Below, piece after piece: positions 24,640 through 51,359 of a stretch of 64,000 nt of DNA. Origin of the DNA: an uncultured virus (IMG/VR IMGVR_UViG_3300028394_000068). Taxonomy: Duplodnaviria > Heunggongvirae > Uroviricota > Caudoviricetes. The first letter of the stretch is position 1; each line of letters begins with the position of its first letter. The stretch lies in IMG/VR virus record IMGVR_UViG_3300028394_000068; one strand, 5' to 3'. Under the pieces are notes generated by a model, which made no database searches, was not told the DNA's origin, and was given only the letters and a program-made list of their open reading frames with translations. Position numbers and translations under genes: made by a program.

Positions 24640-27600
24640 TTATTTGTTATGAGTTAATACATTATTCGCAAAATATAAGTTACTATTACTGACATCAATA
24701 TCGTAAACTGTTGTTGGTTCTGTAATTGTAACTAATAATGTAATTTCAAATTCGGTGTTATCCATATCTAATAATACATCACCAACGTTTAATTCAGATG
24801 TTGTTCTAATATACCACACACCATTTTGTTTAACAACGTGGTTATGTGAATCAGTCGCAATTAATCTACCATTATTAATGTCTATGACAGAATTAACAAT
24901 ATATCTATTAAAGTTAATAACTGTTGATGTTGAATCAACATAATTCAATGTATCACTACTCCAAGAGTACCATTCGTCCGATGGTAAAGGCATTCCTGAA
25001 ACATCAAGAGATTTAAGTACATCCTCAACTTGAATGTCTTGTATTAATTTAGTTGACCCATCTGATAATGTTATTATTGTATCGGCAACAAGACAACTAC
25101 CACAACTTACACAAGCTCCAACCCAACTAGTACCATTCCATTGTCTTTTATTTGGGGGGGAAGTAGTGTTAAAATCTGCGTACCATCCAGAGGCCATTGA
25201 ACCACCTAAACAACCTGTACCATCTGAACTATAAATTACTGTTGACAAACATATATCAGCATTGTCAGTACACACGTTTGTGAATGCACCTAATATACAA
25301 CCCACCGTGAAAGTTGTTTTATAACTCCACCCAACAATAGAACCTAAACAACAATTGTACGCAGAGACATCAATAGTTCCCGGGTCACCAGAAGTTCTTG
25401 TAACCGTGTTTTCTCGTGCACAAACATCTTGTGGGGTTCCTCCCTCAACAAATACTGTCTGAGTACCACCTGTACAATTAGTGTATTGGAAAGTAGTTCC
25501 ACCTATAGATGGGTCCGGTGGTGGTGGTGTATCACTAGTTAATGTATAACATACACAAACTACTGCGGGTGTTGTTGGTGTTACTGTAGGAGTATTACTC
25601 GGTGTGTTAGTTAATGTTATTGTCGGTGTAACAGTTTTTGTTGGTGTGTTACTTGGCGTGTTAGTTAATGTTATAGTAGGTGTTGCAGTTTTTGTTGGTG
25701 TTATTGTTGGAGTATTACTCGGTGTATTAGTTAATGTTATAGTAGGCGTAACAGTTGGTGTTGCCGTTTTTGTAGGAGTATTACTTGGAGAATTAGTTAA
25801 TGTTATAGTAGGTGTAACAGTTGGTGTTGCCGTTTTTGTCGGAGTTATTGTTGGAGTTATTGTAGGTGTTATTGTAGGTGTAACAGTTGGAGTCACAGTT
25901 CTTGTTGGTGTAATACTCGGAGTAACACTTGGAGTATTTGTCGGAGTATTACTTGGGGTGTTTGTTAATGTTATGGTAGGTGTAACTGTTGGCGTTATTG
26001 TAGGTGTGACAGTTGGAGTCACAGTTCTTGTTGGTGTAATACTCGGAGTATTACTTGGTGTATTTGTTGGCGTAGTAGTTAACGTTATTGTAGGCGTAAT
26101 CGTTGGGGTTGGAGTTATAGTTGGTGTAACCGTACTTGTTGGTGTTTGTGAAAGTAATGGTGGTGGACAAGGGTCTTCAAATGTACATTCAGCACAACTA
26201 ATAGATGTTCCAAAACTTATTATATTATATTGACTGGTAAATGATGAACCACTTACAGCGGTCACACAACCACTGAATCCATCTGTTGTGATATAATATG
26301 ATTGACCTATAGTAATTGTAGTCACAAAACCACCAACTTTATAAATATTAAGTGAATTACAACAATCTTGGAAATAATTGATATCCGGCGGTAATGATGA
26401 CGGTGTATTTGTTGGTGTGTTACTTGGCGTATTTGTTGGAGTAGTGGTTAATGTAATAGTCGGTGTAATAGTTGGTGTTGGAGTTAAAGTTGATGTCGCT
26501 GTTATACTAGGTGTAACTGTTGGGGTATTTGTTGGTGTGGGGGTTGGACCAGCAATTTCTGTTACACAAACATTATCAATATAGATTGTGTTAATAATCC
26601 CCGGACAACCATCTACCGCCCCAAATCCAAAAAATGTACCTGTTCCACAAACAAGATTAATATCGTGATATGTTACTCCGGTATCACTAATTGGTGAAGA
26701 AATAGTGTTACCTGCACTAACTTGGACATATCCGTATTCAGTGCAAGAAGAGTTGTTATATAGTTTAAATTTAATATTATAAGTGGCCCCTTCAGTTAAT
26801 ATATCTTGATATAAAAAGTTTCCTTCGGATTCTCCAATAAAATTAGCACTACCCCCATAATTAGAACTCCACACCCAATTAGACCCAAAAAGTTGTGACC
26901 ATCCATTAAGATTATTATTAAAATCACCGTTGATTACTAAATTACCATCACAAGTTATTGGTGTTACGGTAGGAGTTATTGTTGGTGTTACTGTTGTGGT
27001 TGGTGTAGGTGTAGGTGTTGGACAAATTCCTAATGTTGATGAAATTATTATAAATTGAGGATATGATTCCTCAACCCAAGGGTATGTTACATCACTTAAC
27101 GGATAATTTCCGGGATTACTATTAGAACAAAAGAAATGGTAAACATCGTCACCTAAAATCTCAGTATAGTTCCATTTACTTGATGAAGTATTCCACCAAA
27201 CAAACCCAACAGGTGTTAAACAATCATTTAATAATATTTCATAATAAAATTTACCATTATAAATTCCCGTTTTACCTATAGTACAACTCCATTCAAAACC
27301 TATAGCTTCCGTTATAACCGTAAAACACATTTCACTTGGTAAATTTGTTGGTGTTGGGGTTACGGTTTGTGTAGGAGTATTTGTAGGAGTTACGGTTTGT
27401 GTAGGAGTATTTGTCGGAGTAACTGTTTGGGTCGGAGTAATACTTGGTGTCGGTGTTGGTGTTATAAATAAAATACCATTAAAATCACAGAAAGGAGCCG
27501 GAACAGGACCTTTTATTTCTATAGGTCTAAAGTATTCCAATGGAGATTTTTTTCGTTCAAAACCAGGTTTTATAATTTTTACATTATAAATTCCCTGACC

Positions 27601-27663
27601 ATCAACAACTAGTCTTGACCCAGCAAAAATATTACCCGATTTTTTTCTATCTACAAATCCCAT
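24640..27663 (-). CDS. Virion surface protein with long Thr-Pro repeats, CBM-like module and C-terminal Hint domain
   Basis: NLVINGDFN...GW module; [10 protein letters not shown]...VYDIDV...[11 protein letters not shown] Hint at 24640-25095. Confidence 0.75.
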
Positions 27664-35294: not shown

Positions 35295-37340
35295 ATGATA
35301 GAATCTATGGATGGTGGAAGTAATGGTGGTAATAAAGCAGTTAAGACTGACTCGTCAACTCCCGTATTAGACAATTTTAGTAGAGATTTAATAAAACTTG
35401 CCGAAGAGGGTAAACTTGACCCGGTAATTGGTAGAGAAAGAGAAATCACACGAATCGCCCAAATCCTTTCACGTAGAAAGAAAAATAACCCAATAATCAT
35501 CGGAGAACCTGGTTGTGGTAAAACCGCAATCGTGGAAGGTCTTGCCATTATGATTTATAATGGGGAATGTCCAAGAAACTTAATGGACAAACGTATCGTA
35601 TCCTTAGATATGACATCAATTGTTGCCGGAACCAAATACCGTGGACAATTTGAAGAAAGAATGAAAGTTATTATTGAAGAACTTCAGAACGCACCGAACA
35701 TCATCGTATTCATTGACGAAATCCACACAATCGTTGGAGCAGGAAACTCATCAGGTTCAATGGACGCATCAAACATCTTTAAACCGGCACTTGCCCGTGG
35801 GGAGATTCAATGTGTTGGTGCAACAACATTAGATGAATACCGAAAAAACTTTGAGAAAGACGGAGCATTAGAAAGACGTTTTCAAAAAGTTGTAGTGGAT
35901 GCGGCAACCAAAGCTGAAACCCTAATCATCCTTCAAAATGTCAAAAACAAATATGAGGATTATCATAAGGTAACTTATACGGATGAAGTATTATCAGTAT
36001 GTGTTGATTTAGCTGACCGTTACATCACCGATAGAGAATTTCCGGACAAAGCGTTTGATATTATTGATGAGGTTGGAGCAAGAAGTCAGGTGGATATCAA
36101 AATGCCCGATACAATTGAAAAATTAAAACAACAAGCGTCAGACATCAAACAAGAAAAAGTCAATGTTGTAAAACAACAACGATATGAGGAGGCAGCAAAT
36201 CTCCGTGACAAAGAAAAACGTATCTTAAACAAACTTGAGACTGAAAAGAAAAAGTTTGAAGAAGAACTTCTTACACACAAGAAAGAAATTACACTTGATT
36301 TAGTTTATGAGGTTGTTTCCAATATGACAAAAATCCCGGTAACAAAATTAAATGCCGATGAAACTAAAACTCTATCTGAGATGGAATCAAACCTATCTGA
36401 TAAAGTAATTGGACAAGCGGAAGCAGTTTCAAAGATTGTTAAATCAATCCGTAGAAACAGAATTGGTATCAAAGACCCGAACAAACCAATTGGTTCATTC
36501 ATCTTCCTTGGTTCAACAGGTGTGGGTAAAACATACTTGGCAAAACAATTAGCAAAACAAATGTTTGGTAGTGAAGATAATATGATTCGTGTGGATATGT
36601 CGGAATACCAAGAAAAACACTCCATTTCAAGATTGATTGGAGCACCTCCGGGATACGTTGGATACGATGAAGGTGGTCAATTAACCGAACAAGTGAAAAA
36701 CAAACCTTATTCTGTAATTCTATTTGATGAGATTGAGAAAGCCAATAAAGACATTTTTGGAACTCTACTTCAAGTATTAGACGATGGTCACCTTACCGAT
36801 GGTATGGGGAGAAAGATTAACTTCAAAAATTGTGTTATCATTATGACATCAAACGTGGGGGTTAAAAAGTTACAGGATTTTGGTTCAGGTGTTGGGTTTA
36901 AAACTGGTAATAGTACTTACGCGGAAGAAGAATACAAACGTGAGACTCTTAAAAAAGAACTTAAAAAATTCTTTACACCGGAATTTTTAAACAGAATTGA
37001 TGAGGTAGTAATCTTTAACTCTTTAGTTAAAGAAGACGTTAAAAAAATTGTGACTTTGGAATTGGATAAATTATCCAAAAGATTGGTTGGGTTGAAATAT
37101 AACATCACATTTGATGAGTCTATTTTAGAACTAATCTCTGAAGTTGGGTTTGATGAGACCTACGGGGCTAGACCAATCAAAAGAGCTATCCAAGATAAGA
37201 TTGAGGATTTTGTGTCAGAAGAAATTATCAAAGGAAATATGGTGGAGGGTGTTCCATACACCCTTGTATCCATAGAGAAAGAAGTGATTGTTAAACCGGA
37301 AGTTGTTAAAAAGACAAGAAAGAAAAAAGAGGACCAATAG
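35295..37340 (+). CDS. clpC: ClpC-type AAA+ unfoldase lacking the N-terminal domain
   Basis: GEPGCGKT and GSTGVGKT Walker A motifs; UVR coiled coil ([11 protein letters not shown]); GVGF ClpP-docking loop. Confidence 0.9.
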
Positions 37341-40039: not shown

Positions 40040-40436
40040 GGGAGTGACACGGAATTGACTATTCGTAATAGTTATTCGGGGCACGTAGTGAGATGTTCTC
40101 TATCACTTAAATCTATGGGTACAACAATTTAGACGGAAACGTTTTAAACAAAATGGCTCTAGTAGGTCTTGTACGTCAAGACGAGCTTGTGAACGTAGCG
40201 TAAGCACACTCACATTGGGGTCGGTGGACATATAACCTAGCAACAGAAGTCCCTACAAAGGTGTGGTACCTATCCGAAAAGGTACAAGTGGAGGATTAGT
40301 TCTCAGTAAACCGAACCACTCTAAAAATAAGGGAATTGTGAAATTTTGGATTGTTAGCTTAAACAATATCCTAAACGTGTAGTCCTTAATAGGTAATACA
40401 AGTAACACCGGAGTTCGAGTCTCCGCACTTCCACCA
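40040..40436 (+). ncRNA. ssrA: tmRNA (one-piece)
   Basis: 5' GGGAGTG pairs with 3' CACTTCC-ACCA with G3:U70; GGAATTGAC D-like loop; CGGAG-TTCGAGT-CTCCG T-arm; tag frame 40135-40203; smpB nearby. Confidence 0.93.
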
Positions 40437-40913: not shown

Positions 40914-41351
40914 CTATTTCAAGTCTCTTTTCATATCTCTTTCAATATCCCGAGATTTAATACTATCTCGTTTATCGTGGAGTTTTTTCCCTTTGGCAAG
41001 AGCAATCTCCATTTTAATCAATCCGGTATCGTTTATGAAGACACGATAAGGAATAATGGTTGTCCCGTTGATTAACTCACGTTCCAACTTATTAAGTTCT
41101 TTTTTCTTGGCTAATAGTTTTCTATCCTTAACGGTCTCGTGGAATGACCCATAACCATAATCAGAGATGTTCATCCCCTTTATAAACAACTCACCTTCGT
41201 TGAAATAACAATACCCTTCAGATATGGAGACCTTTCCCTGACGGATGGACTTCACCTCTGAACCAACTAGTTTGATTCCCACAATTAGGGTTTCTAAAAA
41301 TGAATACTCAAACTTGGCTTTCTTATTGACTATGTTAATTGATTTTTTCAT
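40914..41351 (-). CDS. smpB: SsrA-binding protein SmpB
   Basis: NKKAKFEY, GIKLVGSEVKSIR, RKLL, AKGKKLHDKR. Confidence 0.95.
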   Translation of the reverse strand: MKKSINIVNKKAKFEYSFLETLIVGIKLVGSEVKSIRQGKVSISEGYCYFNEGELFIKGMNISDYGYGSFHETVKDRKLLAKKKELNKLERELINGTTIIPYRVFINDTGLIKMEIALAKGKKLHDKRDSIKSRDIERDMKRDLK

Positions 41352-42768: not shown

Positions 42769-43378
42769 TAAATGTAAAGAAGAAAAAGAACTTTGTGAGT
42801 TTCAAAAACGGAAAGATTCTAATGATGGTCTGCGAAGTGAATGTAAAAGTTGTATTAAGTTTTACCACAAAGTTTGGAGAACTCAAAATCCAAATAAATA
42901 TCCTGTTTATAACAAACAATTTAAGATAAATAATCCTGAAATACATAAAACAATAATTAAAAAATATAAAGAAAATAACAAAGAAAAAATTGAAAATAAC
43001 AATCGTAAGTGGAGACAGAACAATAAGGAATATATTAATAATTATATGAAAAATAAACGAAAAAATGATTCACAATATCATTTAATAACACTAGTAAGAT
43101 GTCGTCTGAATGAATTTTTACGAATTAGAAAAATAACCAAAAGAAATAACACTATAAATATTGTGGGTTGTTCACCGGAATTTCTTAAGATTCACATTGA
43201 GAATCAATTTACTGAAGGTATGTCTTGGGAATTATTAGGTCAACATATTCATATTGACCATAAAATTCCTTTATCTTCGGCAAAAACTGATGAAGAAATT
43301 TATCAGTTATGTCATTACACAAATTTACAACCACTATGGGCATTTGATAATTTAAGTAAAGGTGATAAAATATTATAA
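42749..43378 (+). CDS. HNH endonuclease-like protein with N-terminal Zn finger
   Basis: CSKC...CKSC; HIDHKIP...CHYTNLQPLWAFDNLSKG. Confidence 0.8.
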   Translation: MEKKVCSKCKEEKELCEFQKRKDSNDGLRSECKSCIKFYHKVWRTQNPNKYPVYNKQFKINNPEIHKTIIKKYKENNKEKIENNNRKWRQNNKEYINNYMKNKRKNDSQYHLITLVRCRLNEFLRIRKITKRNNTINIVGCSPEFLKIHIENQFTEGMSWELLGQHIHIDHKIPLSSAKTDEEIYQLCHYTNLQPLWAFDNLSKGDKIL

Positions 43379-43380
43379 AC

Positions 43381-43414
43381 AAAAAAAGGTGTCACATTAC
43401 TGTAACACCTTTTT
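43381..43414 (-). terminator. Intrinsic terminator of the large ncRNA (also usable by the HNH gene)
   Basis: Minus strand GGTGTTACA-GTAA-TGTGACACC-T7. Confidence 0.8.
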
Positions 43415-44221
43415 GGCTTAATACGATGAGAATACTCGTCTTATTGAGAATCTTTAGAAGTTTTATTGTTTGACTTCTTTTCCACACCCTTTTGGGATGT
43501 AATCCTCATTGCCGATTAGTTAGACTAATCACTCCTTACGATATCATTTACTCTCTCATTATTCAACTCTCTTCAAGCTTGCGACCTGACTCCGGATTCG
43601 ACTCCGTAGAGGTTTTTGGTAAGAATACACATTAACTTGCGGTCTTTGTGTGCTATGGACATCCCATAACTAAGTAGGCAACTTGTCAATGACATCGGGT
43701 AGACATTTTTGCTATGTTTCTTTTAGTTTTTCACCATATTGAAAATAGTAATTGTGTTGTGGATGTGTTCAAGAAGTAGTCTACCATAAGCTTCGTCTCC
43801 TTTTGAGAGACAAAATACTAAACTTCTCGATGAGATATCCCTATCTCCACTTTTCAAGACATCTTCATACCATCACCTTGGTGGGTGATTGATAAGGATG
43901 ATGACAGCACCACCTGTTACTCATCTTACCTTTCGATTTTAAGATACCTATTAAGTTGGAACCCGCAATTATAAAGTCGGATAACTTTACTTCTCACATA
44001 ATCCCTATGGGTTATTTTTTTTGGTGTTCCCACCTCAAACAGACAATCCACATTGCCCATTCAGTTTTCCATTTCCCTACGAAGTTATCCTCGGTACTAC
44101 AGGCTCACTGATATCCCACTTGTGTACTCGAGCTCCCTTTCAGAAGCCGCAGAACCAATAACACTGATGGTTCCACTTTAATCCTCATTTCTGAGTTTAT
44201 TTGATGACTATACACAGCCAA
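43413..44221 (-). ncRNA. Large structured ncRNA (~810 nt), GOLLD-like
   Basis: No ORF of 60 aa or more; visibly GC-richer than flanks; termini pair (TTGGCT/AGCCAA); many GNRA hairpins; own promoter and terminator; size and tRNA-adjacent phage context fit GOLLD. Family identity not confirmed. Confidence 0.7.
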
Positions 44222-44304
44222 TTATCGTTTTTTACTCCACCGAAGTGGGTAAAGGATAATCTAAAATTTCTAAGAACGTCTTGAGGTTTTCCTCATTTGT
44301 TTTA

Positions 44305-44335
44305 CAAAGGTAAGTGATTTTTTTCTAAAGTCAAA
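44305..44335 (-). promoter_or_regulatory. Bacteroidota sigma70-type promoter for the large ncRNA
   Basis: TTTG-N19-TACCTTTG on minus strand. Confidence 0.7.
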
Positions 44336-44357
44336 CACTTTTGTAATTTTTTTTTAA

Positions 44358-44475
44358 TCTGTGATAAGACCTTAAGATTTACTCATTCGTAGGTCACCCA
44401 TTCTATTCTACCTAAAACTCGCACTCCCGTCGGGATAGTCTGCTGTAATAGGGCTATCTGCTATCTTATCACAGA
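44358..44475 (-). ncRNA. Unknown 118-nt structured RNA
   Basis: Perfect 12-bp terminal helix TCTGTGATAAGA/TCTTATCACAGA; internal helices; lies between tRNA-like genes and the large RNA. Confidence 0.5.
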
Positions 44476-44486
44476 ATAAACTATTG

Positions 44487-44576
44487 TGGTATCAGATGGG
44501 TTCGAACCACCGGCACAGAGTCTTTCGTTACTCCTGCTCTACCAAAGGAGATAAATCTCCACTGAGCTATAATACC
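44487..44576 (-). tRNA. Atypical tRNA-like RNA (hairpin inserted in D-loop, 8-nt anticodon loop)
   Basis: GGTATTA/TGATACC acceptor, GCTC/GAGC D-stem, GGTGG-TTCGAAC-CCATC T-arm; loop AACGAAAG. Confidence 0.75.
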
Positions 44577-44585
44577 ATATAAGTT

Positions 44586-44660
44586 AGTGGACGTATGCTC
44601 TACCATCTGAGCTACGGAGTTAAGACCGGAGGGATTTGAATCCTCGACACAACGTCCACC
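44586..44660 (-). ncRNA. Circularly permuted tRNA-like RNA
   Basis: Order is anticodon-stem 3' strand, variable loop, T-arm, looped acceptor stub, D-arm, anticodon-stem 5' strand. Confidence 0.7.
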
Positions 44661-44697
44661 TATATTTTCAATAATTTTAAGAACTTTATTTCTTCTA

Positions 44698-44729
44698 CAA
44701 AGATAATACTTTTATTTTAATCTGTCAAA
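44698..44729 (-). promoter_or_regulatory. Bacteroidota sigma70-type promoter for the tRNA-like cluster
   Basis: TTTG-N20-TATCTTTG on minus strand. Confidence 0.65.
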
Positions 44730-44888
44730 TTATTTTAAAAATAATTCTATTAATTTTATTAAACCAAAACTAAAACACATTCCGGATACAAAATAACTGA
44801 ATGCAGGATTTTTACCATTTTCTTTTTGTGTTTTTGCGGAGAATAGGTTTAATCCCATCAATCCAAATTGTACTAATACTATTGTCAT
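44730..44888 (-). CDS. Small two-TM membrane protein (52 aa, absent from the ORF track)
   Basis: MTIVLVQFGLMGLNLF...FSYFVSGMCFSFGLIKLIELFLK; ATGA-coupled to the upstream ORF. Confidence 0.5.
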   Translation of the reverse strand: MTIVLVQFGLMGLNLFSAKTQKENGKNPAFSYFVSGMCFSFGLIKLIELFLK

Positions 44889-45028
44889 AATTTTTTTTGT
44901 TTTTCTTGTAATTCAGTTAATGCCTCTTTAAGTTCTTTACCCCACGCTTCTTTCCATTGTTCAAAAGTAAATTTTGATTCCGGATGAATCTTCATATAAT
45001 TCTTGTATTGTGTTTCTAATGTTGCCAT
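44885..45028 (-). CDS. Small hypothetical protein (47 aa, absent from the ORF track)
   Basis: MATLETQYKNYMKIHPESKFTFEQWKEAWGKELKEALTELQEKQKKL. Confidence 0.5.
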   Translation of the reverse strand: MATLETQYKNYMKIHPESKFTFEQWKEAWGKELKEALTELQEKQKKL

Positions 45029-45554: not shown

Positions 45555-45661
45555 AGTTCATCCGTTTTGTGAGTACAAAGATAAGCCTTAAATTCAAACT
45601 GCCAAACTTTTTTTAAAAATTTTTTTATTTTTTTTTATTACTGAAGTGAAGTAAAACAAAT

Positions 45662-47621: not shown

Positions 47622-48647
47622 TTACAATTTTTTAAATTCCGGTCTGATTAGGTTCCATATGATTTCAGAGTAATCTTTTTTATCCCACATAGCAAACATC
47701 ACAGGATGTAATACTTTTTGTTGTTTTAAGACAAACTCAGCAAATTCTTTTTTTGTTGGTTCAGGGTCAACGTCACCATATTTTCCATAACGGAACCCAT
47801 CGTGAAGTTTTCCAGCTCTTTCAGATATTTGAAAATAACCATATCTTAAATCTCGGACATAGTTTTGAATTTTTTTATAAAATTCATCCGGAACATCTTT
47901 TAATAATTCCAACACATCTTCACCATTTTTCAAATACTCCCAAACTCCGGTTGTAGTGACGTTAGTCATTATTTTATGAAGACGAAGATACTCAACACCT
48001 TTAACTTTGACTCTATCCCCATTGGAGAACTTTACCACGAACCCCTCTTGGTCGTTTTTAACCATTTCTTTCAGTTGTTTGTAGTCATTGATACCATCGT
48101 ATTTTTTAACCACATCAAACCCCCATTGTGACCATATTTCAGAATCCATTTCTTTTCCATTCTTATCAAAAGTTCCCAATAAGACTAGTTTTTCATCATT
48201 ACCATAATCCAAAACAATTCTGTTTTCTGGATAGATGATTTCAAAACAGAAAGTCAGATGTCTGAACATTATATCGGTGTTGTATTTCTGTAAGAGTTCT
48301 CTCGCTTTGATTGCTTGGTCAGAGGTGAATGAACCACGAGTGGCAACCACCCATTGACCTTGATACCAAAATACAATACCCAATGAACCATCCATTTTTT
48401 CATAAACCTCAAAGTTTTCAGTTGGCGTAAATTTTCCTTCTTCTATGTTGAAGAACTTTTGAAATGGTGTTGCAACTATGTCTCCGGTGTTGTCGGTAAC
48501 TAAACCTCTACACATAAGAGTCACCTCATCCCACAGGTTCTCGTACTGAACTTTCTCAGTATAATTCCATATGGTTAATGGAAGTGATGGATGTACTTGT
48601 TTATAAAGTAATCCGTCTTCGTAATATTTGTTTAGTTTTTCTAACAT
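47622..48647 (-). CDS. RNA ligase (T4 Rnl1-like)
   Basis: EKMDGSLG (motif I), FEII, EGFVV, RVKVK. Confidence 0.88.
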   Translation of the reverse strand: MLEKLNKYYEDGLLYKQVHPSLPLTIWNYTEKVQYENLWDEVTLMCRGLVTDNTGDIVATPFQKFFNIEEGKFTPTENFEVYEKMDGSLGIVFWYQGQWVVATRGSFTSDQAIKARELLQKYNTDIMFRHLTFCFEIIYPENRIVLDYGNDEKLVLLGTFDKNGKEMDSEIWSQWGFDVVKKYDGINDYKQLKEMVKNDQEGFVVKFSNGDRVKVKGVEYLRLHKIMTNVTTTGVWEYLKNGEDVLELLKDVPDEFYKKIQNYVRDLRYGYFQISERAGKLHDGFRYGKYGDVDPEPTKKEFAEFVLKQQKVLHPVMFAMWDKKDYSEIIWNLIRPEFKKL

Positions 48648-48980: not shown

Positions 48981-49376
48981 TTAAAGTTTTACCTCAAAAC
49001 GATTTTTCATTAATTTTAATTTATCTTCCGGAACCCCGTGTTCATTAATACCATCGTGTCTATTCTCTACAATAAGTGAGTGAACTCTATATCCGTGTTT
49101 TTCAGCTAATTCAAAATAAGGTGTCATTTCCCACTCTTGGGTGAATGTATTTGATACCACAACTTTATGTTCGTATTTCATAAGGAACTCAACCTCTTCT
49201 TGACACCAAGCGTGAGCATCTCTCAATGATGTAACATCAAACTTATAGTTACCATCCCCATCGACAAAATACATATCCGCCTCTTTGTGACAATAATCTT
49301 TATCACCAACTAACATTTTTGCCAATGTTGATTTACCACTTCCTGGTAATCCTCTTAATAAAAATAACTCTTTCAT
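48981..49376 (-). CDS. P-loop kinase (AAA_33, polynucleotide-kinase-like)
   Basis: RGLPGSGKST, EADMYF, VVSNTF, HGVP. Confidence 0.85.
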   Translation of the reverse strand: MKELFLLRGLPGSGKSTLAKMLVGDKDYCHKEADMYFVDGDGNYKFDVTSLRDAHAWCQEEVEFLMKYEHKVVVSNTFTQEWEMTPYFELAEKHGYRVHSLIVENRHDGINEHGVPEDKLKLMKNRFEVKL

Positions 49377-49664: not shown

Positions 49665-50327
49665 TTACTTTCTTTTTTTACCGTCTTCAGTTATTACCTC
49701 ATCTGTGTGGTGGTCACCATCCATATTTGAACGGATTTCTCTCATCTTCACAATCTTAATCACATTATCCAATTCGTATGGCATAAAAAACATATTACCA
49801 TCAATTCCAACATCCATTCTTCTTCCTTTACCAAATACTTTTTGTTGAGGTAAATGACAGTGTCCGTGTAAGTGAATGTGTCCTTTGTTTAACCCATCCC
49901 AAGAATCTATTGGATAGTGCATTAAAACCAAAGTTTCAAATTTATACATCAATTTTGTGTAGTGATTAACACTTGCAAACAATTCCTGACAATCCTCTCG
50001 GTTGTTTTCAATGTGGTGGTCGTGATTACCTAATATAAGGTGTATCTCTTTACACACAATTCTATCTCTGAAAATTTTTATATTTTCAAATCCACCAAAA
50101 CTCCAATCACCCAAGTGAATCAAAACATCGTCTTGTCCTACAACACTGTTAATGTTATTCACAATCATTTCATTCATCTCACTAATTGAATCAAAATCTC
50201 TGGTTTGTGCGATTGGAATACTCCCATCAGGTAATCTCCACGCGGTCACACCACGACATATATTCTTATGCCCAAAGTGGGTGTCGGAGATTATCCATAC
50301 CTTTCTATCTTTATCTATCTTAATCAT
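49665..50327 (-). CDS. Calcineurin-like metallophosphoesterase
   Basis: SDTHFGH, HLGD, GNHD, HGHCH. Confidence 0.9.
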   Translation of the reverse strand: MIKIDKDRKVWIISDTHFGHKNICRGVTAWRLPDGSIPIAQTRDFDSISEMNEMIVNNINSVVGQDDVLIHLGDWSFGGFENIKIFRDRIVCKEIHLILGNHDHHIENNREDCQELFASVNHYTKLMYKFETLVLMHYPIDSWDGLNKGHIHLHGHCHLPQQKVFGKGRRMDVGIDGNMFFMPYELDNVIKIVKMREIRSNMDGDHHTDEVITEDGKKRK

Positions 50328-50817
50328 ATTGCAAATCTAATTCTTTTTTTCCAAACCAAAAAGGTTTTTCTCTGTTTTTCCAAGATGCCAAACTAATTTT
50401 AGCACCCATATAATAATTTCTGTAAGATTCCACAACAGAATCTACCTTAAACTCATCCGGCATTGCCATCGCCGGAGTAGTAAAACCAATATCCGGAATG
50501 TTTGGTTTATTTATAATACACCAATTAATCACATCAATTGATTTATGTCTTTTACCATACCTGTGGGTATATTCTTTACCCAACTCCAACCCCAACTCAC
50601 ACAAGTACAAATAATTTGATAAACTCTGACGAGCCCACACCGCACAAGGATGATTCTTATGTGACAACTTGTAGGGTACTTGGGGGGTAACTTGGGGGGT
50701 TGTGTGATGAACCGAACATAATAACTGAGCCGTTTCCAAAATCATTTTTACTACGTGTTTATCTACGTGGTATTGAGCCGATAATGTAGGATTCTCATCC
50801 AAGAAAAATATATTCAT
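50320..50817 (-). CDS. Pyrimidine-dimer DNA glycosylase (DenV)-superfamily protein
   Basis: MNIF.LD...DKHVVKMILETAQLL...HKNHPCAVW. Confidence 0.75.
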   Translation of the reverse strand: MNIFFLDENPTLSAQYHVDKHVVKMILETAQLLCSVHHTTPQVTPQVPYKLSHKNHPCAVWARQSLSNYLYLCELGLELGKEYTHRYGKRHKSIDVINWCIINKPNIPDIGFTTPAMAMPDEFKVDSVVESYRNYYMGAKISLASWKNREKPFWFGKKELDLQYD

Positions 50818-51266
50818 TATACGTGTGGTATTTGGACTCTCACACAAGTTTGTGCTTGACCCTCGTTCATATAAAAATTGTTCAAGTATCCCATAATGTT
50901 TGCACTACCAATTGGATTAGCAGAATGAACATATACAATTGGAAATACAAATTTGTCTGCCTTTCTCTCACTTCTACTCATATTGAATCTACCTTCATTT
51001 GTATTGTGAAATAATGCAACCAAAAATTTAGCGGCATCATATCCGGTTTTTTCCTCAATATTATTGTAATCCAAAGTATAATTTGGGGAAACATTGTCAA
51101 AATATTCTTTCATAGCTGTATCGCCCAAATCGTGGTCTAATGATATAATATCAATTTTACCCAACCCAACTTCATTAACTTTACTAACGAATTCATCGTA
51201 ATTTCTCACAACAATCCAATTATCTCCGGTTGGGGTTCTTACGTCATCTAAATAAATTCTACACAT
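50817..51266 (-). CDS. Cyclic-phosphate-processing receiver-domain protein
   Basis: IYLDDVR.P, ISLDHDLG, TGYD, VHSANPIG. Confidence 0.75.
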   Translation of the reverse strand: MCRIYLDDVRTPTGDNWIVVRNYDEFVSKVNEVGLGKIDIISLDHDLGDTAMKEYFDNVSPNYTLDYNNIEEKTGYDAAKFLVALFHNTNEGRFNMSRSERKADKFVFPIVYVHSANPIGSANIMGYLNNFYMNEGQAQTCVRVQIPHV

Positions 51267-51359
51267 AATTTCTATTTTTTTTACAAAGATAATCAAATTT
51301 TTGAAATAAAAAAATGTTTAATTATAAAAAGTAAATATTTATAGTATAAAAACACTTAA

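Follow-up and report, generated by a model that had tools for sequence, protein, structure and literature searches.

In a 64,000-nucleotide stretch of DNA from an uncultured phage (IMG/VR record IMGVR_UViG_3300028394_000068; hereafter the window), we characterized a small RNA module encoded on the minus strand that is very probably a tRNA mimic of the YrlA type operating without Ro60. The module has a defined and conserved fold, its own promoter motif of host type and a fixed place in an array, in which it is followed by an anticodon-less tRNA-like RNA and a GOLLD RNA. The best overall explanation, which we adopt with moderate confidence, is that this small non-coding RNA of YrlA design represents a free-standing mimic of the tRNA body that would function in tRNA damage and repair, a role that we infer from its structure and its genetic surroundings. 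The design itself has already been published for YrlA. What is new is the setting, namely a Ro60-less module with a minimal stub, flanked by GOLLD and by a second tRNA mimic that is likewise disarmed, with an Rnl1 repair set nearby, and our literature search found no paper describing this module/GOLLD/Rnl1 arrangement.

Read 5' to 3' on the minus strand, positions 44660 to 44586 consist of one strand of a closing helix, a T arm, a closed stub, a D arm and the partner strand of the helix (Table 1). The T arm precedes the D arm, the acceptor end is sealed, and the termini lie at the position of the anticodon stem. A single unpaired U followed by a 5-nt variable region (GUGUC) connects the first helix strand to the T arm, and U8 and A9 link the stub to the D arm. 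An earlier note on this DNA, made from the sequence alone, had proposed the same segmentation and arm order, and direct reading and the minimum free energy (MFE) structure calculated by RNAfold bear them out exactly; the helix between the ends, which it had estimated at 8-9 bp, has 9. The MFE structure is the segmented fold both for the module alone (-24.9 kcal/mol) and within a 213-nt context. The z-score of the folding energy is -2.04, with 8 of 200 shuffled sequences equally stable, and thermodynamics by itself thus provides weak support for the fold.

All nucleotides of the tRNA core and elbow are present in the module, i.e., U8-A14, A9, G15-C48, G18 G19, G46, U54 U55 C56 and A58, and the elbow and core contacts represented include those of G18G19 with U55C56 and of U54 with A58. 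These nucleotides are invariant across the 11 distinct module sequences that we collected, among them the elements that the earlier note had listed as retained (U8-A14, G15-C48, the GG of the D loop and the UUCA of the T loop). Position 53 is A or U in all copies of the module, and the normally universal 53:61 pair is therefore mismatched, which could weaken the T loop; the four ordinary tRNAs matched by the same search pattern have G at this position. In terms of the tRNA cloverleaf, the module has neither an anticodon loop nor a 7-bp open acceptor stem, as had been noticed from the sequence. The accompanying prediction that standard tRNA finders would miss it also held, as both ARAGORN and the Rfam tRNA model (RF00005) left 44586-44660 uncalled, even at E ≤ 10; an acceptor of 3 bp would be rejected by ARAGORN whatever the arm order.

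Table 1. Coordinates of the RNA module, the surrounding RNA genes and the protein genes discussed in the text.
Feature	Positions	Strand	Evidence or details
tRNA-mimic module	44586..44660	minus	sequence reading, Rfam YrlA match, RNAfold, conservation across homologues
Closing helix, 9 bp	44660-44652 with 44594-44586	minus	outermost pair is G.U
T arm GAGGA/UUCAAAU/CCCUC	44645-44629	minus	
3-bp stub CGG/CCG	44628-44615	minus	closed by 8-nt loop
D arm GCUC/AGAUGGUA/GAGC	44612-44597	minus	two linker nucleotides, then the 9-nt partner strand 44594-44586
Module promoter: TTTG, 20 nt, TATCTTTG (type TTTG-N17-21-TAnnTTTG)	44698..44729	minus	motif search
Leader, ~30 nt, predicted 5' end	44661..44692	minus	alignment
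9-nt spacer	44577..44585	minus	between module and tRNA-like RNA
Anticodon-less tRNA-like RNA, 91 nt	44486..44576	minus	Rfam tRNA 38 bits
Variable cassette slot, 118-nt structure with 13-bp closing helix	44358..44475	minus	z = -2.52, 2/200 shuffles as stable
Second promoter, same type, upstream of GOLLD	44305..44335	minus	motif search and alignment
GOLLD RNA, ~820 nt	43423..44245	minus	Rfam RF02032, 287.9 bits; 3' domain 43830-43423
Intrinsic-terminator-like site	43383..43414	minus	the only one on this strand from the module promoter to the end of GOLLD
Rnl1-type RNA ligase	47622..48647	minus	Pfam RNA_lig_T4_1, 1.2e-19; PHROG 562, 8.8e-67
P-loop polynucleotide-kinase-like protein	48981..49376	minus	Pfam AAA_33; PHROG 2071 and 505
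Calcineurin-like phosphoesterase, candidate end-healing enzyme	49665..50327	minus	Pfam Metallophos; PHROG 547
cREC_REC 'cyclic-phosphate processing receiver' domain protein	50817..51296	minus	Pfam PF20274, 9.7e-19
tmRNA	40040-40436	plus	Rfam 68 bits; missed by ARAGORN; behind promoter motif
SmpB	40914-41351	minus	behind promoter motif
ClpB-like AAA+ protein	35295-37340		

The earlier note had read the module as a pure elbow mimic; it is not an unrecognised kind of RNA, as its layout is that of YrlA. The YrlA model RF02553, which is in effect a model of a circularly permuted tRNA and took the place of the re-permutation and covariance-model check suggested in the earlier note, matches positions 44672-44568 (34.7 bits; E = 2e-5 over a searched length of 1.7 kb) and aligns the T arm, the stub and the D arm of the module with posterior probabilities near the maximum. 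This score is lower than the Rfam gathering threshold of 69 bits for RF02553. We scored 19 Ro60-linked modules, 16 viral and 3 from Bacteroidota, with the same model; all of them gave between 32.3 and 49.4 bits and none reached 69 bits, indicating that the threshold is non-discriminating outside of the seed group and that the sub-threshold score of the phage module is no objection to its assignment. Weak matches to RF02553 (E ≤ 1) were also obtained in 13 of 14 control genomes, and the score alone is therefore not specific. The weak matches in controls likely stem from tandem tRNAs, which are described as false positives of YrlA searches by Chen et al. 2014 (PMC4201824).

Three features of YrlA are set out in the same paper (PMC4201824): a domain composed of a T arm, an acceptor-like stem-loop and a D arm; a GNCGAAN0-1G motif close to the 5' terminus, put forward as a contact site of Ro60; and a Ro60 gene located at most 4 kb away on the same strand. 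The crystal structure of the tRNA-like domain has been reported by Wang et al. 2018 (10.1101/312249). The phage module has the whole domain, with its T arm, closed acceptor-like stem-loop, D arm and tRNA tertiary nucleotides. By direct reading, the GNCGAA motif is absent from the leader of the module and from those of its aligned relatives. No Ro60/TROVE protein is encoded by the ORFs of at least 90 residues in the window, and TROVE was found in none of 10 related phage records, including the three complete ones. As a positive control, we searched 30 other phage records that carry sealed modules and detected TROVE in 16 of them (8 of the 12 complete ones), usually 1-3 kb from the module. Criteria for YrlA and other bacterial Y RNAs include the binding of Ro60 and modification by TruB and DusA. 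We have filed the phage module as an RNA predicted to work like YrlA's tRNA-like domain, and not as a Y RNA proper, which would be bound by Ro60. Head-to-tail chains of sealed modules (T arm, stub and D arm, repeated) were observed at three loci (L060:1501-1608 on the plus strand, L061 and L221), and four YrlA-like matches are found beside a tmRNA in L061.

The search for homologues and covariation suggested in the earlier note yielded 28 viral and 40 metagenome loci and revealed compensatory changes. A T-arm pattern search of viral contigs gave 32 matches, corresponding to 28 modules and 4 ordinary tRNAs, and with a looser pattern (free T stem, stub and closing helix) 40 of 40 metagenome loci proved to be the module; the two sets overlap, some loci being the same contigs present in both collections. 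Over the 11 distinct sequences, standard pairs occupy 98.3% of 231 pair cells, and the paired fraction falls to 33-60% in slid registers of the alignment. Changes on both sides affect three of the nine closing-helix pairs and one stub pair. Between the two sub-lineages, the closing-helix differences are G.U to U-A, A-U to G-C and C-G to U-A; the fourth stub pair is A-U, U-A or U.G, and one stub pair is G-C or G.U. The T and D stems show no variation among homologues, and the variable parts are the stub loop (4-10 nt), the stub length (3-4 bp) and the flanks. The covariation is modest, as it reflects, in essence, a single split into two sub-lineages and hence few events, and the looser metagenome search described above retrieved only the same two sub-lineages and did not raise the covariation power. 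Direct reading and conservation establish the module as real and as more than a chance fold, with few evolutionary events behind it.

A second type of sealed permuted tRNA-like module, unrelated in sequence to the first and of the same design, is present in relatives of the phage (L006:1293-1387 and L081:1291-1385, both on the minus strand, and also L154, L156, L164 and others). Positions 53 and 61 form the normal G-C pair, the stub of 4 bp carries a 17-nt loop, an A is bulged out of the closing helix, and the score with the Rfam YrlA model is 25.3 bits. In some relatives it is placed after the tRNA-like RNA, in the cassette slot. In four loci (L141, L144, L163 and L153), an insert of ~150 nt lies between the module and the tRNA-like RNA, and the module is unchanged.

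The module belongs to an island of minus-strand RNA genes at 43380-44730, which is devoid of credible ORFs and in which promoter, leader, module, spacer, tRNA-like RNA, cassette, promoter, GOLLD and a terminator-like site follow each other. The promoter motif has 11 matches in the window, compared with 4.79 +/- 2.34 in shuffled sequences (2 of 100 shuffles reach 11), and it is found just upstream of tmRNA, SmpB, the ClpB-like gene, GOLLD and ORF 45554. We take this motif to resemble the -33/-7 consensus of Bacteroidota. In the alignment, the copy upstream of the module is kept in most relatives. The leader reads ...AUUGAAAAUAUAG, and UUGAAR is conserved ~10 nt before the closing helix, except in L153, from which it is missing.

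The RNA immediately downstream of the spacer has a 7-bp acceptor stem and a normal T arm but departs from a tRNA in two places: its D loop accommodates an extra hairpin, and where the anticodon loop is expected there is a stem with a C-GAAA-G tetraloop at its tip. The Rfam tRNA match renders these departures as 19 nt inserted in the D loop and a 'loop' of 8 nt. Covariation among 21 distinct homologues extends to the acceptor stem, to the hairpin in the D loop and to the base pair that closes the GAAA loop (C-G, U.G or U-A). ARAGORN called a Thr-GGT tRNA at 44486-44576, which we rejected as an artefact. Judging from its sequence, the neighbour is a non-decoding tRNA-like RNA. The 118-nt structure that follows it has no match in Rfam, and in relatives the same slot harbours a different structure, the second sealed module or nothing.

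GOLLD is present as RNA in lake metatranscriptomes. In 4 of 4 runs from four studies, contigs cover it from 43425, 43435, 43482 or 43504 up to 44245, from which we took its 5' limit; in run X18, the cover extends up to 44183, not 44245. Adapter letters directly follow position 44245 in two metatranscriptome runs, a weak hint that the 5' end is located there, and the ~50 nt that separate this position from the upstream, promoter-predicted start hint at 5' processing of GOLLD. The protein genes flanking GOLLD have almost no contig cover in the RNA runs. Cover of 44260-44811 is limited to traces in one run (depth 0.08-0.51); because small structured RNAs are lost from contigs of this type of library, missing cover is uninformative regarding expression of the module, and the lack of any junction of a circular form among the contigs is just as uninformative. 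GOLLD lies downstream of the module on the same strand in all 20 clade loci examined, of 28. A search of phage GenBank records with 43300-45000 returned two huge-phage records matching over GOLLD only, whose GOLLD loci are flanked by ordinary tRNAs and show no YrlA-like match (E ≤ 0.1, within 3 kb).

The window is part of a giant freshwater phage, T4-like and with genes for gp23, gp20 and a T4-type terminase, the complete relatives of which are 308-322 kb long. A set of putative RNA-repair genes (ligase, kinase-like and phosphoesterase; Table 1) is encoded on the strand of the module, and Rnl1 is found 3-7.5 kb upstream of the module on that strand in 6 of 6 genomes, at 3 kb in the window and at 3.4-7.5 kb in five of five related records. 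The module and Rnl1 do not form one operon, as four small ORFs, three unannotated proteins and a promoter (45576-45606) lie between them; the intervening ORFs received no function from PHROGs or Pfam. Conservation of gene order over 3-7.5 kb may reflect simple descent, as the clade is narrow and made up of two sub-lineages. RtcB was found in none of the five clade records. Band-7 was considered as a partner and rejected: it is present in two of the five records, both times far from the module (>100 kb away in G037 and G038), and absent from G002. Elsewhere in the window, a 1007-aa ORF (24640-27663, minus strand) has a weak C-terminal match to an intein-splicing domain (E = 3e-4), below the Pfam cut-off.

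An RNA ligase is a recurrent companion of Ro60-less modules. By scanning one genome per species, we identified eight Clostridia/Lachnospiraceae genomes with short-stub modules like that of the phage, and none of the eight encodes TROVE. The gene order RtcB, short-stub module, Band-7/SPFH is found in 6 of 6 Clostridia/Lachnospiraceae loci (L207, L219, L227, L229, L237 and L240), and Rfam detects these modules at 30-39 bits in five of the seven loci scanned. Of the 14 phage records that have sealed modules and no TROVE, seven encode an Rnl2-type ligase, two RtcB and none Rnl1; in three of them (G015, G021 and G024), the Rnl2-type ligase is encoded within 2.5 kb of the module on the same strand. 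RtcB, Rnl1 and Rnl2-type ligases are all absent from seven of the 14 records, two of which are complete. Wang et al. 2018 (10.1101/312249) describe YrlA beside Band-7 and other RNA-ligase families, credit the RtcB/module/Band-7 arrangement to Burroughs & Aravind 2016 ('b7a-tRNA'), and suggest a contribution of tRNA-like RNAs to RNA ligation. Unlike RNAs of the RtcB/Band-7 type, the phage module has neither RtcB nor a Band-7 gene immediately beside it.

A possible course of events can be outlined as follows. Transcription would start at ~44691, and RNase P, cutting where the downstream tRNA-like RNA begins, would release the 3' end, giving an RNA of ~115 nt. This RNA would adopt the L shape of tRNA and present the elbow together with the invariant D and T stems, and it would lack both an anticodon loop that could be cut or decoded and a 3' end that could be charged. 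Independently of Ro60, it could then serve as a mimic of the tRNA body in a conflict over tRNA breakage and repair, by docking a protein that recognises this body. The bound partners may be the healing-and-sealing enzymes of the phage (kinase, phosphoesterase and Rnl1), in which case the module would be a cofactor or a scaffold, or the partner may be a host tRNA-directed factor, in which case the module would be a decoy. We put forward such an action without Ro60, as cofactor or decoy, as a tentative proposal.

An alternative is that the phage encodes a Y RNA that hijacks the Ro60 (Rsr) of its host, probably a member of the Bacteroidota. The promoter type suggests such a host, and TROVE adjoins sealed modules in Pontibacter, in a Prevotellaceae MAG and in a Bacteroidota MAG. 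Y RNAs are also carried by mycobacteriophages (PMC4201824). However, the module has neither the GNCGAAN0-1G motif nor the '(U)UACUUC' stretch that we read 5' of the T arm in Ro60-linked modules (an unpublished motif), and the known YrlA-carrying phages reported in that paper (22 phages, PMC4201824) also carry Ro60. We regard the use of a host Ro60 as rather unlikely. Less likely still is a module without any role in trans, either what remains of two tandem tRNA genes in decay or a structured 5' leader serving only to have the RNA downstream processed or stabilised. Wang et al. 2018 (10.1101/312249) discuss a dimeric pre-tRNA as the origin of YrlA, the module directly adjoins the 5' side of the tRNA-like RNA, and its z-score is modest (see above), yet the two-sided changes of three closing-helix pairs, the invariance of the tertiary-contact nucleotides next to a stub loop, stub length and flanks that vary, the unchanged module in the loci with the ~150-nt insert, and the sequence-divergent second module of the same design in relatives all argue against a relic or a mere leader. 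As for a permuted gene whose transcript matures into a functional tRNA, like those of red algae and of some archaea, only the arm order speaks for it; there is no anticodon loop, the stub is 3-4 bp long compared with 7 bp for an acceptor stem, and there is no discriminator or CCA. The ends of the helix are also those of the RNA, and the sequence excludes a functional permuted tRNA gene, to which we assign a negligible probability.

GOLLD offers another possible context, in which the GOLLD nanocage would have the module and its tRNA-like neighbour as clients, as cargo or as adaptors for docking, with all of these RNAs made on the same read-through transcript. GNRA tetraloops are typical RNA-RNA docking elements, and one of them replaces the anticodon in the neighbour. 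The constant presence of GOLLD downstream on the same strand and the absence of any terminator-like site between the module and GOLLD are consistent with this reading. In addition, a cryo-EM preprint speculates that the cages may hold linked phage tRNAs (10.1101/2024.12.08.627333). On the other hand, GOLLD has its own promoter, the RNA-run contigs stop at 44245, well short of the module, the two distant huge-phage GOLLD loci have no YrlA-like match within the limits given above, and adjacency within one narrow clade can be due to descent. An accessory role to GOLLD seems unlikely, and its fuller version, with two 'disarmed' tRNA bodies as natural clients or adaptors of the nanocage on one transcript with GOLLD, appears improbable. 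If true, the latter would tie GOLLD to tRNA handling, protection or repair during infection. Irrespective of this, the GOLLD RNA, which is abundant in lake metatranscriptomes, has two non-decoding tRNA mimics directly upstream of it.

The preferred reading, a Ro60-independent mimic of the tRNA body, bears on a prediction by Wang et al. 2018 (10.1101/312249), who postulate an elbow-binding protein specific for the D and T stems. In this phage clade, the tRNA-like domain is stripped of both the Ro60 handle and Ro60 itself, so that its binder would have to be the missing effector, and the module could serve as a clean bait for it. Rnl1 with a kinase and a phosphoesterase would also add a third RNA-ligase context to the link between tRNA-shaped RNAs and RNA repair.

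Compared with YrlA (RF02553; PMC4201824; 10.1101/312249), the phage module has the same arm order, the same pairing of the ends at the position of the anticodon stem and the same tRNA tertiary nucleotides, tandem modules are possible in both, and its D arm is nearly identical to the consensus of the YrlA model (GUAGCUCA...GGUAGAGC). Unlike YrlA, it has no Ro60 gene (none in the three complete genomes) and no GNCGAAN0-1G handle, its stub is 3-4 bp long compared with 6 bp in Salmonella YrlA, it has the 53:61 mismatch and a continuous 9-bp closing helix, and it adjoins GOLLD and an anticodon-less tRNA-like RNA. The b7a-tRNA RNAs of RtcB/Band-7 loci, as presented in 10.1101/312249, are likewise Ro60-less, tRNA-shaped and encoded near an RNA ligase, and the Clostridia modules of such loci share with the phage module a 3-bp stub and a plain closing helix. 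The phage, however, has the ATP-dependent ligase Rnl1, accompanied by a kinase and a phosphoesterase, in place of RtcB, Band-7 is absent or distant in its clade, and the ligase gene is 3-7.5 kb away, whereas it is immediately adjacent in b7a-tRNA loci. Permuted tRNA genes, such as those of Cyanidioschyzon merolae and others cited in 10.1101/312249, also have the 3' half first and a closed acceptor end in the precursor, but they give rise to complete decoding tRNAs, whereas the phage module has no anticodon loop or full acceptor stem. Finally, tRNA genes adjacent to or embedded in GOLLD have been described (10.1101/2024.12.08.627333), and in the phage tRNA-shaped RNAs are similarly placed directly upstream of GOLLD; unlike those GOLLD-linked tRNAs, both are predicted to be non-decoding, and one of them has a sealed acceptor end.
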